Source: a virus. Taken from it: DNA of 64,000 nt. Location: IMG/VR virus record IMGVR_UViG_3300028393_001967; one strand, given 5' to 3'. The notes below the pieces were generated by a model. It was not told where the DNA came from, did no database searches, and saw only the letters and a list, made by a program, of their open reading frames with translations. Numbering within the stretch: position 1 is the stretch's first letter; each line of letters opens with the position of its first letter. The position numbers and the translations under genes were made by a program. Positions 2,571 to 44,386 of this stretch are shown here, piece after piece.

Positions 2571-3536
2571 ATGAACACACTATACCAAGGCAATTTTTTA
2601 GACTTTGATGCTAATATCAAAGATAACTCAATTGATCTACTACTAACAGATCCTCCTTACAATATCAGCGAGAACGGTGCAAAGCCAGTTTGGATTGATA
2701 AGGCTACGGGCAAGAATAAAAGCACTATCCATAATCAACAATTTTCAGAAAAGTTTGATGAAAATTGGGATAGTGTAAGCCACGATGAATTCTTAATTCA
2801 AATTGAAACTTGGGCAAAGTTTTGGTTTAAAAAACTACGCAAGGGTGGCACATTTGCTATCTTTATCAGCGACCAATACATTTCATATCTTTGGAAGATT
2901 ATGGAAGCGGAGGGATTTGAACCCAAACGAATTTGGACTTGGAAAAAACCTGCCGCTGTTCCCTTTAATCGAAAAGTAAATCCAGTGAGTGCGTGTGAGT
3001 ATGTACTATTTGGTATTAAACCAGGTGGCAAACGTACATTCAACTCTGATGCAGAACGGGGCAGTTTGGTTGAACGCTATGCGGCTGCGGACAAAGTCAG
3101 CAGTATTGTGTACAAGTTATTCAAAAACAGTTTACCTAGCGACGATATTAATGAAATTTTTGCACAGGCTGCAAAACAAGCAGAAACGATGCTTAAAGCA
3201 CGTAAAACTACAAATAATGTAGTAGAGTGTGTGATTCCTAATACACTTACATATAGTGGCGGGTTAGGCAAAAATAAGATACATCCTACTGAAAAACCAG
3301 TGGAAATCCTGGAATATTTCATTGAATTGTTGTCTAATAAGGGTGATCTAGTGTTAGATACGTTTGGTGGTAGTGGTAGCACTAGTATTGCCGCAACCAA
3401 TATGGAACGTGATTCAATCGTTTTTGAACAAGATGAGGTAATGTTTGAAAAAATGAAGGCCAGGATTGAAGCACACGAAGGCAATCCATCCGTAGCATTA
3501 TTTGGGAATTCTGATGCCCAAAACCCTGCTATTTAG
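2571..3536 (+). CDS. DNA N6-adenine/N4-cytosine methyltransferase (beta class)
   Basis: DPPY near the N-terminus; HPTEKP; DTFGGSGST SAM-binding motif near the C-terminus. Confidence 0.92.
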   Translation: MNTLYQGNFLDFDANIKDNSIDLLLTDPPYNISENGAKPVWIDKATGKNKSTIHNQQFSEKFDENWDSVSHDEFLIQIETWAKFWFKKLRKGGTFAIFISDQYISYLWKIMEAEGFEPKRIWTWKKPAAVPFNRKVNPVSACEYVLFGIKPGGKRTFNSDAERGSLVERYAAADKVSSIVYKLFKNSLPSDDINEIFAQAAKQAETMLKARKTTNNVVECVIPNTLTYSGGLGKNKIHPTEKPVEILEYFIELLSNKGDLVLDTFGGSGSTSIAATNMERDSIVFEQDEVMFEKMKARIEAHEGNPSVALFGNSDAQNPAI

Positions 3537-3561
3537 GATTAAGTAGATACTAAATAGTAAT

Positions 3562-3930
3562 ATGGATATATTACTATTAATGTTCCTTTTGATTGTCAAG
3601 CATTCGTATGCTGACTTTACTATCCAAACTTATCAGCAAACGGTACGTAAGGGGATTTACCGCGATCCCATTGGTATTAGCCATAGTATGGATCACGTAT
3701 GGACGACACTAATAGCATTACTGATTTTTAGTTTTATCCACCCGCTGAATCCATATACGGCATTGGCAATTGCTGCTGTTGAAGGCATTGTTCACTATCA
3801 TATTGATTGGGTTAAAGTTAGATTTGGAAGTAAAGACCAAACTAAACCTATATTTTGGACACAGTTTGGGTTGGATCAATTAGCCCATTATCTTTGCTAC
3901 TTGGTAATGACTTGGTATATATTAGTATAA
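3562..3930 (+). CDS. Membrane protein, DUF3307-like
   Basis: KHxxADF...H...HYHIDWVK...GLDQLAH pattern and hydrophobic segments. Confidence 0.7.
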   Translation: MDILLLMFLLIVKHSYADFTIQTYQQTVRKGIYRDPIGISHSMDHVWTTLIALLIFSFIHPLNPYTALAIAAVEGIVHYHIDWVKVRFGSKDQTKPIFWTQFGLDQLAHYLCYLVMTWYILV

Positions 3931-6163: not shown

Positions 6164-7300
6164 GTGAAACGATGGGCCATATTGTTATGGTTGTTCACTA
6201 CGGCGGCGGTTGCTGATATTGGATCAATTGTTGATCTAACAGGCACCGCTGTAATTAAGCGCGGTAAAGAGGCCATCACAGTTATAAAAGGCACGCCTGT
6301 TGAAATCAACGATCGAGTAGAAACAAAAAATGGTGTTGTCAATATCAAATTTAAAGACGACACCACTGTTAAAGTTACAGAAAATTCCAGCCTCGTAATA
6401 GACGACTTTGTTTACGATCCCAAAAATACCGCTGGTGGCAAACTTGGTCTCAAGGCCGCCGCTGGTACTGTACGCTATGTATCAGGCAACATTGCACATA
6501 ATAATCCCAATAGTGTAAAAATTAATACACCAACTGCTGCTATTGCCGTTCGTGGTACAGACTTCGTTATGGCTGTAGATGAAACTGGTAAAAGTATGAT
6601 TATGCTTATGCCCACTTGTGAAACAGATCAGAGCGTTAACTTAAAAGGCTTAACTTGCGGTAGTGGTAAAATTGATGTAGATAGCGGATCTACAATTATT
6701 CGATTAGATAAACCATATCAAGCCACAGTTGTAGAAACTGCCAGTACTCCACCAAGTCCTCCTGTTATTGTTAATTTGAGTAATACACCAATAGGTAATA
6801 ATTTAATTATTCGTCCTCCGTCAACAATGTCTGGACAAAGCATTCAACAGGCAGCACGAGCGGCCGCACAAAAAACTGGTGATGTTAAGAAAGAAGATGA
6901 TAAGAAAGACACTAAGGAACCCAGTGTGGCCGAATCAAAAGCAACGGACGATCAACGTAAAGATAATCAAGAAAAAACCGCTGCTGCTCAGGCTGCAGAA
7001 GATCGAGCATTGGCCGTACTGACTGAACTAAAAGATAAAAATGTTAAAGTTACTGATAAAGCCTATGAAAACGAACACGTTGTTGGTATATATAAAAACG
7101 ATAATCCTAACTTAAACCAATTAGGATGGGGTTATATGAGTATGAGTCCAAACGGTAATAACTTTACAGCCATAAGTTTAACTAACGATAATAGAGTATT
7201 AGTGGTAGTAACACAAGATCGACAAACAGATGCTTACAACTTTGCAGGCAGTAATAATAAACCGCAGGGTAGCATCATAATTAATCAGAGTTATAAATGA
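6164..7300 (+). CDS. FecR-domain periplasmic protein
   Basis: Signal peptide; D-x-V-x-T...F-x-D-x-T...ENS...TPTAAIAVRGTDF signature. Confidence 0.85.
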   Translation: MKRWAILLWLFTTAAVADIGSIVDLTGTAVIKRGKEAITVIKGTPVEINDRVETKNGVVNIKFKDDTTVKVTENSSLVIDDFVYDPKNTAGGKLGLKAAAGTVRYVSGNIAHNNPNSVKINTPTAAIAVRGTDFVMAVDETGKSMIMLMPTCETDQSVNLKGLTCGSGKIDVDSGSTIIRLDKPYQATVVETASTPPSPPVIVNLSNTPIGNNLIIRPPSTMSGQSIQQAARAAAQKTGDVKKEDDKKDTKEPSVAESKATDDQRKDNQEKTAAAQAAEDRALAVLTELKDKNVKVTDKAYENEHVVGIYKNDNPNLNQLGWGYMSMSPNGNNFTAISLTNDNRVLVVVTQDRQTDAYNFAGSNNKPQGSIIINQSYK

Positions 7301-37860: not shown

Positions 37861-37920
37861 TGCTATAATTAATACATAGCAGCAAATGATGGAGTTGGCT
37901 GCTAACAAGTTCTTTAAAAA
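37841..37920 (+). promoter_or_regulatory. Sigma70 promoter plus boxB-like hairpin and rrn-type boxA
   Basis: TTGACA-17-TATAAT; TAGCAGC...GCTGCTA; GTTCTTTAAAAA at 37909. Confidence 0.7.
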
Positions 37921-38234: not shown

Positions 38235-38311
38235 GTCCCGTTCATCTAGTGGCCAAGGATAGTATCCTTTTCGGGATATTCACAGAGGTTCGACTCCTCT
38301 ACGGGACGCCA
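38235..38311 (+). tRNA. tRNA-Glu-like gene with an 8-nt anticodon loop
   Basis: Glu-type body; arm GTATC-CTTTTCGG-GATAT; GCCA end. Confidence 0.7.
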
Positions 38312-38324
38312 TATAGTTTTTATT

Positions 38325-38416
38325 GCCAGCGAGACTTGGAAGTCAGAGAGGTCTTATAAGCCTTTTAGCGCCAGATTAGCGTTCTTGAGTGGGTCCGATT
38401 CCCACCGCTGGTACCA
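38325..38416 (+). tRNA. Atypical tRNA with UAU anticodon (Ile-like), long V-arm
   Basis: 1-nt acceptor/D linker; 4-nt D-loop; 6-bp anticodon stem; loop CTTATAA; CCA. Confidence 0.7.
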
Positions 38417-40830: not shown

Positions 40831-40901
40831 TTGACAAACAGTAAGAAGTTTGCTACAATATATACATACACTAAGCAATTAGCGTATACGTTCTTTAAAA
40901 A
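40831..40901 (+). promoter_or_regulatory. rRNA-like promoter plus boxB-like hairpin and boxA
   Basis: A-tract, TTGACA-17-TACAAT, TACACTAA-GCAA-TTAGCGTA, then GTTCTTTAAAAA at 40890. Confidence 0.75.
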
Positions 40902-40916
40902 ATCGAGTATAAGAAG

Positions 40917-41031
40917 TTCTTATACAACTGCCCACTAAGGCGTAGGCCACGCTGATATGGTTAGAGCATAGCATTGTCTATTGGCAATGTCCACAGGTTC
41001 AAATCCTGTAGGTGTGCAGTTGTATAAGAAT
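40917..41031 (+). ncRNA. tRNA-like cloverleaf without CCA, mounted on a 15-bp stem
   Basis: TTCTTATACAACTGC/GCAGTTGTATAAGAA; T-arm ACAGG-TTCAAAT-CCTGT; D-loop with GG. Confidence 0.55.
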
Positions 41032-41032
41032 T

Positions 41033-41926
41033 TAAGGGTAGTTTAATATCCTGTAGGCGGTTCGCCGTCGACGAAGAATAACTGTGGTGACACAGCCAAA
41101 GGAGGTATGCCTACATAACTCCGCTAGTAATAGTTCGTTTAGACAAGCCTGCTCACTGTCGCGAGACAGCGATCACTGATAAGACCGGTGGTTGTAACAA
41201 TGACGCTGGATGTTGTGGAAAGAACCTTTGCTTACAAGCCCGCAAGGGGAACTTGAGTAGATGGAAAGTAACAGGTGGTGCTGACTTCACAACTAAACCA
41301 GTCCAGTTAATTAGTATGAGAAAGGGTAGTGTATTTGTCCGAAGGGTTGCACCTAAGGGCTTGTATGCAGTTTGAGTGGTTAGTGGAGGCTGTCAGCAAT
41401 GGCGGGGTCGACACAGATCGCAAAAGACGACTGAGTAGTTCGCAAGACAAAAGGTACGTGGTGTGTTGTATTATGTAGTCCAAAAGATTATGTAGCAACT
41501 GAGTCAGCACATCGCAGTAGGTTTACAGTAGCACAATGGTAGTGCAATTCCCTTTTAAGGAATAGGCTGTTGGTTCAAATCCAACCTTATATAAAATGCA
41601 AAGACTGACTCGGTCGTATGTGAAAGACATCTAATACTTGGCTCGTAAGAGAACTAAGTCTAATTAAACTCGCAAGGTGAGATTAGTTTATACAGGATGT
41701 TTCGTAAGGTGTTAGCGCACTTGAATGGCTCGCAAGGTCAACGGAATGGAAAGTGTAGAATAGCATACGGCGACGTGACTACTGCCTGTCACTAAAAACG
41801 GCGATGTTGACAACAGACTAGGATACCTAGCAATAGGGCTTAGTGGAAGTCGGAAGAAAGTAGACTCGCAAGGTTTACAATAATGTCCGAGGTGTTGTTC
41901 GGTAAGGATGTATTCTCAGTCCTCCA
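41033..41926 (+). ncRNA. Giant (~900-nt) structured ncRNA, GOLLD-like, with embedded tRNA-Lys-like domain
   Basis: No + strand ORF; raised GC; many GNRA tetraloop hairpins (CGCAAG x5, GCGAGA, TAGCAATA); tRNA-cluster context. Confidence 0.7.
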
Positions 41927-42019
41927 TTATATTAAAGTACATTTAATTTATACATAGTGTAGATATTAAGGCAGTGACACCGCTGTGATTAGAAACGTCA
42001 TAAGTGTGCTTCAATATAA
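41927..42019 (+). repeat. Conserved-stem hairpin element H
   Basis: TTATATTAAAGTACATTTA...TAAGTGTGCTTCAATATAA. Confidence 0.65.
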
Positions 42020-42316: not shown

Positions 42317-42883
42317 ATGAAATTAACACTTCGCAAAGCAAACGCTCTACAAAACACAATCCAAGAACACATCAAGACTATCGAAGTCACTGCCACAGTT
42401 TCATTGAACGAGTTTCAAACTCCTTCTGTTGAGTTGGTAACCGCCCGTAACACATTAGTTACTAATGATGGTAAACGTGCTGCCTTGACCAAGACCCTGT
42501 ATGGCATTCGTGCTCAAGTTGGTCGTGCCAATGTTGAGTCTGGTGTTAGCGATTTGCTGGCAGATGCCGCATACGTTGACAAGCGTTTGGTACAATTGAA
42601 GGTGTTGACTGACAGCAAGGTAGTTGAGACTGATGCAGTTATCGACGGCAAGTTGGAAAAGATCCGCACACAAGAAAAGACTAGCCGTATGTATGGCTAT
42701 GCTGACACTGTTGATACTGGTGTTCTAACAGCAGAACAAATTGAAGGTTACAAGGCAGCAATGCGTGACTTGAAGAAACAAAAGCAAACAATCAACGACA
42801 AGGTGTTGGAACTTAATGTTCGCACTGAAATTGAATTGAGTGCTGAAACTGTTGCACTGCTACAAGCAGAACAGTTGGTATAA
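42317..42883 (+). CDS. Coiled-coil protein, DIP1984/septicolysin-like
   Basis: MKLTLRKANALQ...GRAN...LELNVRTEIEL pattern; AAAGGA RBS; strongly biased codons. Confidence 0.5.
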   Translation: MKLTLRKANALQNTIQEHIKTIEVTATVSLNEFQTPSVELVTARNTLVTNDGKRAALTKTLYGIRAQVGRANVESGVSDLLADAAYVDKRLVQLKVLTDSKVVETDAVIDGKLEKIRTQEKTSRMYGYADTVDTGVLTAEQIEGYKAAMRDLKKQKQTINDKVLELNVRTEIELSAETVALLQAEQLV

Positions 42884-43738: not shown

Positions 43739-43756
43739 TTTTTGATACCAATTTGA

Positions 43757-43785
43757 TTGACATAGATATTAAATAAATATATACT
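43757..43785 (+). promoter_or_regulatory. Sigma70 promoter of the tmRNA (with embedded TAAATA)
   Basis: TTGACA-17-TATACT. Confidence 0.8.
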
Positions 43786-43791
43786 GTAAGT

Positions 43792-44262
43792 TAAGACTGT
43801 ATGAAGTCGATTGAAAAGGATTCTGGACGCGGGTTCGACTCCCGCCAGGTCCACCATAAGGAAGTTTGATGATTTTACAAGATTTAGAATATATTTTCAA
43901 GCCGCAAGTTGACGAAGGTACAACCAAGTTGTACTTTATGTTGATAGATGGTGAGCATACGATGATGGAACGACACAATGCTAGTGATATTGAATCATTA
44001 GTTCCAATGTTAGATTCATTTCAATATGCTGGTACAGAAATTCGTATTCCTCGTTTTATAAAGTAAGTTTTCTTATGATGGGCCTGCCATGGTTTCGACA
44101 GGGTCAAGAGTAATGAAATGGACAGTCCGGCAATGTAGAAGCCGTTAGGGTTGGGGTTTCCCGGCCGAAGACACAAAACCTATAAATGCAAACGATTCAG
44201 TTTACGCATTGGCCGCCTAAACGCAGCCTGGGGTAAGACATACCTCGCAACAGAAACTCAAA
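43792..44262 (+). ncRNA. ssrA: Circularly permuted (two-piece) tmRNA, tag (A)ANDSVYALAA
   Basis: Acceptor piece ends ...GGTTCGACTCCCGCCAGGTCCACCA (43856); coding piece starts GGGCCTG (44080; G3:U70); tag at 44188-44220. Confidence 0.92.
43869..44066 (+). CDS. Small acidic protein encoded inside the tmRNA intervening segment
   Basis: AAGGAAG RBS; 65-codon ORF filling the spacer. Confidence 0.6.
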   Translation: MILQDLEYIFKPQVDEGTTKLYFMLIDGEHTMMERHNASDIESLVPMLDSFQYAGTEIRIPRFIK

Positions 44263-44263
44263 G

Positions 44264-44287
44264 TAGGCTCTCCGGAGCCTATTTTTA
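44264..44287 (+). terminator. Intrinsic terminator after ssrA
   Basis: TAGGCTC-TCCG-GAGCCTA-TTTTT. Confidence 0.85.
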
Positions 44288-44386
44288 TGACTATAGAAGT
44301 CATAGGAATTTTCAATTGAAAAATGCTATTTTTAGGTTGATTCCTATAGTAAATAAAAGTACAATATTATTTTACAAGGAGACTGT

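Follow-up and report, generated by a model that had tools for sequence, protein, structure and literature searches.

A GOLLD gene in a phage stable-RNA island

We analysed a 64,000-nucleotide (nt) stretch of DNA from an uncultured virus (IMG/VR record IMGVR_UViG_3300028393_001967), referred to here, at its full length, as the window. The element in question lies on the plus strand at 41036-41926 and is a gene for GOLLD, a large noncoding RNA, whose linker holds a module shaped like a lysine transfer RNA (tRNA) with the anticodon UUU. Its surroundings form a stable-RNA island in which ARAGORN called 44 tRNAs and a permuted transfer-messenger RNA (tmRNA). When the whole window was scanned with Rfam covariance models (cmscan), a single GOLLD match (RF02032) was obtained at 41458-41922 (+), with 201.8 bits (E 1.7e-55) against a gathering score of 150 bits and with model positions 1-416 of 416 covered. 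The ROOL model had no match in the window; other Rfam matches in the region were at chance level, and no alternative family fits.

Relatives were gathered in three ways: by blastn among named phages, from IMG/VR contigs having the 188-amino-acid (aa) gene that follows GOLLD downstream, and by two pattern scans of IMG/VR. Searching with a profile built on the whole RNA gave ~45 full-length homologues of roughly 900 nt each, and the window copy was aligned with 27 non-redundant relatives from uncultured large phages (alignment A2; 28 sequences, 79% mean column identity). The contigs of this clade reach ~420 kilobases (kb), and a megablast search of the phage collection with 21.7 kb of the window yielded no close named relative. 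GOLLD was nevertheless above the cut-off in five named phages, namely Sinorhizobium phage Phosso, Mesorhizobium phage Cp1R7A-A1, Caulobacter phage CcrMagneto, Phaeobacter phage MD18 and Xanthomonas phage BUDD. The first four of these have a tRNA at the linker site, whereas no nested tRNA was found inside the GOLLD of BUDD. Eleven of 12 IMG/VR contigs having the downstream 188-aa gene contain GOLLD together with a nested tRNA. The named-phage GOLLDs align only from about position 300 of the profile onward, in agreement with a more variable 5' part of the RNA.

The RF02032 model spans only the 3' domain of GOLLD and the linker, and the other ~420 nt on the 5' side lie outside it. Conservation starts at ~41036 and stops at ~41926, which gives a structured RNA of ~890 nt; because the 5' half is conserved and covaries in the 27 relatives, this extent is right to within a few bases. 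RNAalifold predicted 238 pairs in the 28 sequences, 153 of them with compensatory changes. The 5' domain accounted for 107 pairs in 20 helices, with 98.4% of alignment cells paired and 67 pairs compensated. None of 500 shuffles scored as high, and only 36-42% of cells were paired when the partners were slid by 1-3 columns. No open reading frame (ORF) longer than 67 aa overlaps 41033-41926, and the C-GNRA-G motif occurs nine times, compared with a mean of 2.0 in shuffles.

These results bear out what the original prediction, made from the letters alone, had said of the RNA as a whole. It had proposed a GOLLD-like RNA of ~900 nt in an ORF-free, GNRA-rich region and had pointed to the GOLLD and ROOL models for comparison; the Rfam score and the covariation agree with GOLLD, and the conserved structured RNA has the proposed size. 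Its further statement that GOLLD RNAs occur near tRNA genes and may have tRNA inserts is established (PMC12286853, PMC6582537, PMC12990946). Every defining GOLLD feature open to computation is present in the window copy: compensated helices and pseudoknots in the 3' domain, a structured but less conserved 5' domain with a total length of at least ~800 nt, a variable linker holding a tRNA, and a phage context close to tRNA genes. The coordinates of all features are collected in Table 1.

Table 1 Features of the GOLLD locus, in the numbering of the window
Feature	Position	Strand	Basis or remark
Near-consensus sigma-70 promoter	40831-40859	+	TTGACA-17-TACAAT, TG before the -10; 11/12 positions match
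12-mer GTTCTTTAAAAA	40890-40901	+	Candidate boxA-like leader element; sequence only
18-base-pair (bp) stem enclosing a tRNA-like element	40914-41032	+	Fold z-score -4.9
GOLLD 5' domain	41036-41457	+	~20 helices; outside the Rfam model; A2, RNAalifold, pair counts
Long-range helix, 5' strand AGCCUGCU	41146-41153	+	RNAalifold prediction; pairs with 41516-41523
GOLLD 3' domain including linker	41458-41922	+	RF02032 match, 201.8 bits
Pseudoknot, 5' strand CUGAGUCAG	41499-41507	+	In bulge of first 3'-domain hairpin; partner 41605-41613
Long-range helix, 3' strand AGUAGGUU	41516-41523	+	RNAalifold prediction; last three bases are nominal tRNA positions 1-3
Nested tRNA-shaped module	41521-41593	+	ARAGORN tRNA-Lys(ttt); in GOLLD linker
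D arm of module	41531-41545	+	GCAC/AATGGTA/GTGC
Anticodon arm of module	41547-41563	+	ATTCC/CTTTTAA/GGAAT
Anticodon loop of module	41552-41558	+	CUUUUAA
Anticodon of module	41554-41556	+	UUU
T arm of module	41569-41585	+	GTTGG/TTCAAAT/CCAAC
A-rich 3' tether AAAUGCAAAGA	41594-41604	+	Between module and pseudoknot strand; (nearly) invariant A2 columns
Pseudoknot, 3' strand CUGACUCGG	41605-41613	+	Closes linker with 41499-41507
188-aa ORF	42317-42883	+	Directly 3' of GOLLD in 11/12 related phage contigs, 62-77% identity

The tRNA-shaped module in the linker

The linker is closed by a pseudoknot of nine pairs, which were 98.8% paired and included three compensated pairs in the clade alignment; its covariation is seen in the named phages too. 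Within the linker, and inside the GOLLD match, the Rfam tRNA model scored 57.2 bits at 41522-41593. The module there is a cloverleaf with canonical D and T loops, U33, A37 and G18G19. The D, anticodon and T arms that the original prediction had quoted for an internal tRNA-Lys(UUU)-like domain are all present, and it was right that no CCA is encoded, since AAAT follows the discriminator. Its description of a broken acceptor stem holds for the outer part only: only four of the seven nominal acceptor positions pair in the ARAGORN register, but an inner 4-bp stem (41524, 41525, 41527 and 41528 with 41586-41589, C41526 being bulged) is kept and covaries. Measured against a tRNA gene, the module has the cloverleaf arms and has neither a seven-pair acceptor stem nor an encoded 3' CCA.

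Covariation across relatives is seen in each stem of the module: the D, anticodon and T stems and the four inner acceptor pairs. Taken together with the pseudoknot, they comprise 27 pairs with 98.9% of cells paired and 18 pairs compensated. Because its stems covary, the module is under selection and not decaying. At the outer three acceptor positions, the 5' bases are an invariant GUU (within a GGUU that is invariant in 28/28 sequences), and 3' pairing is found in 42-79% of modules. In three sister linkers (L304, L335 and L348) we observed a perfect Asn or Lys anticodon arm together with a damaged T loop, with CTTCAAAA or CTTCATAA replacing GTTCAAAT. The anticodon arm is thus perhaps the most strongly constrained part of the module.

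To place the module relative to ordinary tRNAs, 43 nested and 593 free tRNAs (distinct sequences from the same phage loci) were compared. CCA was encoded in 0/43 of the nested modules but in 87% of the free tRNAs. The mean number of acceptor pairs was 5.0/7 for nested and 6.64/7 for free tRNAs, and a full 7/7 acceptor stem was found in 12% and 81%, respectively. The window's own free tRNAs encode CCA in 39/42 cases and have 7/7 acceptor pairs in 36. No close paralogue of the module was found among the free tRNAs in these loci, where only generic arm matches of ~20 nt were seen. The phage has a free tRNA-Lys(UUU) as well as a free tRNA-Lys(CUU).

The module follows directly on a long-range helix predicted by RNAalifold, which is probably the P13 of the published GOLLD scheme, and the first three bases of the module probably belong to this helix. 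In the published layout the tRNA lies in J13/15 directly after P13 (PMC12990946), with which the position of our module agrees. A comparable 10-bp long-range pairing candidate was seen in Mesorhizobium phage Cp1R7A-A1, and the other three distant relatives were ambiguous. On the 3' side of the module, the tether AAAUGCAAAGA agrees with the Rfam GOLLD consensus AAAGCAAAAG.

Our preferred reading, to which we give a probability of roughly 0.87, is that 41036-41926 (+) is a GOLLD gene within the tRNA/tmRNA island of a large uncultured phage and that its module is maintained by selection as a tethered, non-decoding one. The missing CCA, the weak acceptor stem, the lack of a paralogue, the presence of free tRNA-Lys, and the GOLLD of Mycobacterium aubagnense, in which Northern blots showed no separate signal for the nested pseudo-tRNA (PMC6582537), taken together favour a tethered module. 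The GOLLD RNA is probably transcribed from the promoter at 40831 along with a stem-enclosed tRNA-like cassette. It consists of a variable structured 5' domain, the predicted long-range helix, the pseudoknot-closed linker and the conserved 3' domain, and by homology with two solved GOLLDs it may assemble into an RNA-only cage of 12 to 14 subunits with the linker facing the interior. The linker is filled by the Lys UUU module, held by selection as a folded tRNA body, which most likely stays covalently tethered and functions by being displayed, not by decoding.

Several points weigh against this reading. A precursor lacking CCA might in principle be matured by RNase P or Z and a CCA-adding enzyme, and some sister modules have 6-7 acceptor pairs. 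Both strands of the long-range helix are invariant in the 28 sequences, so covariation does not speak for it. The proposed cage is an extrapolation from env-38 and Streptococcus agalactiae GOLLD, two distant members of the family and the only ones for which self-assembly is known (PMC12286853, PMC12990946).

Anticodon repertoire and alternative explanations

A repertoire scan anchored on 3'-domain motifs, and therefore independent of the tRNA, recovered 61 distinct linkers of this GOLLD clade, all of them 84-92 nt long. Every one contains a tRNA-shaped module; ARAGORN called 53, and the other eight have clear anticodon arms. The anticodons were mainly Asn GUU (29), followed by Lys UUU (13), Lys CUU (7), Arg UCU (5), Thr UGU (3), Ile GAU (1) and CUA (1), with 8-nt loops in the remaining two. 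ANN-reading anticodons were found in 58/61 modules compared with 35% of 587 free tRNAs, although the linker sequences are related and these counts are not independent events. The 8-nt anticodon loops belong to L050 and L344, and the amber-reading CUA module to a more distant GOLLD (L029, IMGVR_UViG_3300012036_000005, ~6491-6565).

Anticodon identity switches repeatedly in this clade. When a tree was built from the scaffold with the tRNA left out, at least 10 changes of anticodon label were needed among its 28 tips, and the modules of L122 and L062 share the same aligned D-arm-to-T-arm stretch and differ only at the wobble base. Modules are up to 100% identical between scaffolds of only 65-79% identity (module conservation is 95-100%, compared with 65-82% for the scaffold), and the loop keeps the pattern C-U-N-U/C-U-A-A even as the stems turn over. 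The anticodon pattern could also derive from a common ancestor combined with constraint on U36-A37-A38. No scaffold column pairs Watson-Crick with the wobble base (the best reached 21/28 and lies in a column already in a hairpin), so an internal wobble pairing partner is not evident.

It is possible, if unlikely, that the tethered anticodon arm acts as bait, displayed in 12-14 copies per cage to titrate or trigger anticodon readers (candidates are PrrC, RloC and AriB of PARIS) while translation is sustained by the free tRNAs of the phage. Stated for the clade, and in our view just as unlikely, the module would be a selected, unchargeable display of an anticodon arm whose wobble base is switched among Asn, Lys, Arg and Thr by engagement with anticodon-reading nucleases or some other reader. 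That the module is kept by selection and yet not chargeable as encoded, its presence in all linkers, the bias to ANN-reading anticodons, the repeated label changes with the wobble-only difference between L122 and L062, and the identical modules on diverged scaffolds give this idea no more than circumstantial support. The tRNAs cleaved by AriB are exactly Lys UUU, Thr UGU and Asn GUU; unmodified transcripts suffice, and recognition involves the anticodon arm and the D loop (PMC12409363). The overlap of this target set with the module repertoire is suggestive. However, the linker is inside the cage in the published structure, where proteins may not reach it (PMC12286853), and E. coli AriB requires U39 whereas the window module has G39. 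The narrow anticodon set may also partly reflect ancestry and single-base steps, given that the modules are related.

The original prediction had built its decoy proposal on a host-type loop, CUUUUAA, as opposed to a phage-type CUUUUAC. This one-base difference (A38/C38) does exist between the module and the free tRNA-Lys of the window phage, but it is not general, as CUUUUAA is also found in 14/17 free tRNA-Lys(UUU) of related phages. With regard to the host, the 17-nt anticodon arm of the module is identical to that of tRNA-Lys(UUU) in Pelagibacteraceae and Campylobacterota: AUUCC-CUUUUAA-GGAAU occurs in L173, L192 and ~70 other Pelagibacteraceae loci (L138-L256) as well as in Helicobacter and Sulfurovum, and the T stem GUUGG/CCAAC is common to the module and some Pelagibacter tRNA-Lys(UUU) variants. 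The arm match could be a clue to the host. The 22-mer that joins the D stem to the anticodon arm had no exact match in the genome_contigs collection (185,579 species, one genome each). The Asn and Arg modules of sister GOLLDs differ in their arms from Pelagibacter tRNA-Asn and tRNA-Arg(UCU), which leaves general host mimicry unsupported and also tells against bait. The G+C content of the window (40%) moreover looks a poor fit to a SAR11 host. We consider the arm match probably coincidental.

Alternatively, GOLLD might be a carrier or timed store of a tRNA, along the lines of the 'inhibited storage' idea (PMC12990946), from which RNase P and a 3' nuclease would excise the module for completion by the host CCA-adding enzyme and subsequent decoding of AAA/AAG. 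The complete cloverleaf with its canonical U33, A37, G18G19 and T loop would suit a functional tRNA, as would the 6-7 acceptor pairs of some sister modules. Since the class IIb synthetases for Asn and Lys recognise their tRNAs chiefly by the anticodon, the tRNAs would remain usable after a wobble-base switch. This is nonetheless a doubtful explanation, considering that CCA is encoded in none of the 43 modules, that the outer acceptor positions are paired in 42-79% (in the window copy, 4/7 pairs with a bulge), and that the phage already has free tRNA-Lys(UUU) and tRNA-Lys(CUU); nor was a separate pseudo-tRNA detected in M. aubagnense (PMC6582537).

Less probable still is a purely architectural role, in which the insert would be compact filler or an inter-subunit contact in the cage with no external anticodon reader, for example through a kissing contact of the self-complementary UUAA of Asn and Lys loops. 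The tight linker length and the UUAA found in 49/61 loops are in line with this, but UUAA is missing from the loops with Arg UCU, Thr UGU and Ile GAU anticodons, and no scaffold column covaries with the wobble base. Furthermore, BUDD has a GOLLD without a nested tRNA and the env-38 linker is only 42 nt long and disordered (PMC12286853), so the module is not required for the cage. A decaying pseudogene, in which a tRNA gene once inserted into the variable linker is now drifting, is very improbable. The bulged, mismatched acceptor stem of the window copy and the damaged T loops or 8-nt anticodon loops of a few sister modules could be read as decay; all four stems covary with 98.9% pairing, however, the modules are better conserved than their scaffolds, and the loop C-U-N-U/C-U-A-A is kept. 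Scaffold divergence rules out that the relatives are recent copies of one another.

Flanking features and relation to known RNAs

Upstream of GOLLD, the promoter at 40831-40859 is preceded by an A/T-rich tract and is likely, judging by its near-consensus elements, to be the start of a transcript with the upstream cassette and the GOLLD RNA. The rRNA-like (ribosomal RNA-like) promoter and boxA described in the original prediction stand in part: the promoter is strong, and the 12-mer GTTCTTTAAAAA is present twice, but its reading as boxA is still conjectural. The second, identical copy lies at 37909-37920 behind another strong sigma-70-like promoter, and both copies sit ahead of untranslated RNA arrays. 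These are the only two exact plus-strand copies, and 8/100 shuffles reach three matches at ≤1 mismatch; recurrence is only weakly above chance, and a boxA-like antitermination role is possible. The 18-bp A/U-rich stem at 40914-41032 adjoins the GOLLD 5' end and looks like an RNase III-type processing stem, so that it is possibly a processing site. ARAGORN called a tRNA-Leu(tag) within it (40930-41018), which was absent at the Rfam gathering score. A weaker stem-loop was observed 3' of GOLLD at ~41927-42019.

The 188-aa ORF is a syntenic neighbour of GOLLD, with no Pfam match above the cut-off and no PHROG family. One related contig (L136, IMGVR_UViG_3300020045_006153, ~2900-3750) keeps the 188-aa gene with ordinary tRNA genes upstream and no GOLLD at the Rfam cut-off, which shows that phages of this group can lose or replace GOLLD. 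The permuted two-piece tmRNA (tag ANDSVYALAA) lies at 43753-44311, 1.8 kb downstream of GOLLD, and GOLLD adjoins a permuted tmRNA also in Phaeobacter phage MD18 (L004) and Caulobacter phage CcrMagneto (L003). Elsewhere in the island, ARAGORN called two unusual tRNA-like genes: the first, at 38235-38311, has a 2-nt 'anticodon', and the second is a tRNA-Ile(tat) of 92 nt (38325-38416).

GOLLD (Weinberg et al. 2009 as cited in PMC6582537) is among the largest noncoding RNAs of bacteria and phages, without a known function even though its cage structure was solved in 2025. Since a tRNA or pseudo-tRNA in the linker has already been published (PMC12286853, PMC6582537, PMC12990946), we regard our finding as real but mostly ordinary. 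Its modest addition is clade-wide: the module is always present and CCA-less and retains the inner acceptor pairs only, with ANN anticodons and a toggling wobble base. On these data, the hypotheses narrow to a tRNA body that stays tethered and is read by some partner, and if bait were the true explanation, it would give the first functional handle on GOLLD. The function of the module is approachable in culturable GOLLD phages such as Caulobacter phiCbK-like phages, Phaeobacter phage MD18 and Sinorhizobium phage Phosso.

Compared with other GOLLDs, the window copy shows the family likeness of a conserved 3' domain, a variable structured 5' domain, a variable linker, a location in a phage tRNA island and a linker tRNA. 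Cryo-electron microscopy has resolved env-38 as a 14-mer and the Streptococcus agalactiae RNA as a 12-mer, with the linker inside and sometimes holding a tRNA (PMC12286853, PMC12990946). Nothing defining differs. In the window clade the linker always holds a CCA-less tRNA-shaped module. Mycobacterial GOLLDs are similar in having a tRNA-like gene in the single-stranded J13/15, within a horizontally acquired tRNA array; the nested element is a pseudo-tRNA or tRNA-Phe (PMC6582537; Morgado et al. 2020 as cited in PMC12990946). They differ in their Phe anticodon and actinobacterial chromosome, compared with Lys/Asn/Arg/Thr in a phage genome for the window clade. ROOL, another large, ornate RNA of phages and prophages encoded close to tRNA islands, also builds a cage and has a disordered linker in its interior (PMC12286853), but it is unrelated to GOLLD in sequence and fold.

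Outside the giant RNAs, the anti-PARIS tRNA variants of phage T5 concern the same tRNA species, since Lys UUU, Thr UGU and Asn GUU are the AriB targets, and likewise set phage-encoded tRNA bodies in an arms race with anticodon nucleases; they are free, chargeable, cleavage-resistant replacements, whereas the GOLLD module is tethered, CCA-less and has a canonical loop (PMC12409363). Any link of the GOLLD module to nucleases is conjecture. Like the tethered, non-decoding module that we propose, tmRNA and the YrlA-type Y RNAs of bacteria and phages (RF02553) have a tRNA-shaped body in a larger noncoding RNA that is recognised as tRNA-like without decoding. The tRNA-like domain of tmRNA has a CCA acceptor end and is charged, and the GOLLD module has no such end. 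YrlA, by comparison, mimics the acceptor, T and D parts of a tRNA without an anticodon arm, whereas in the GOLLD module it is the anticodon arm that is intact and the acceptor end that is missing.

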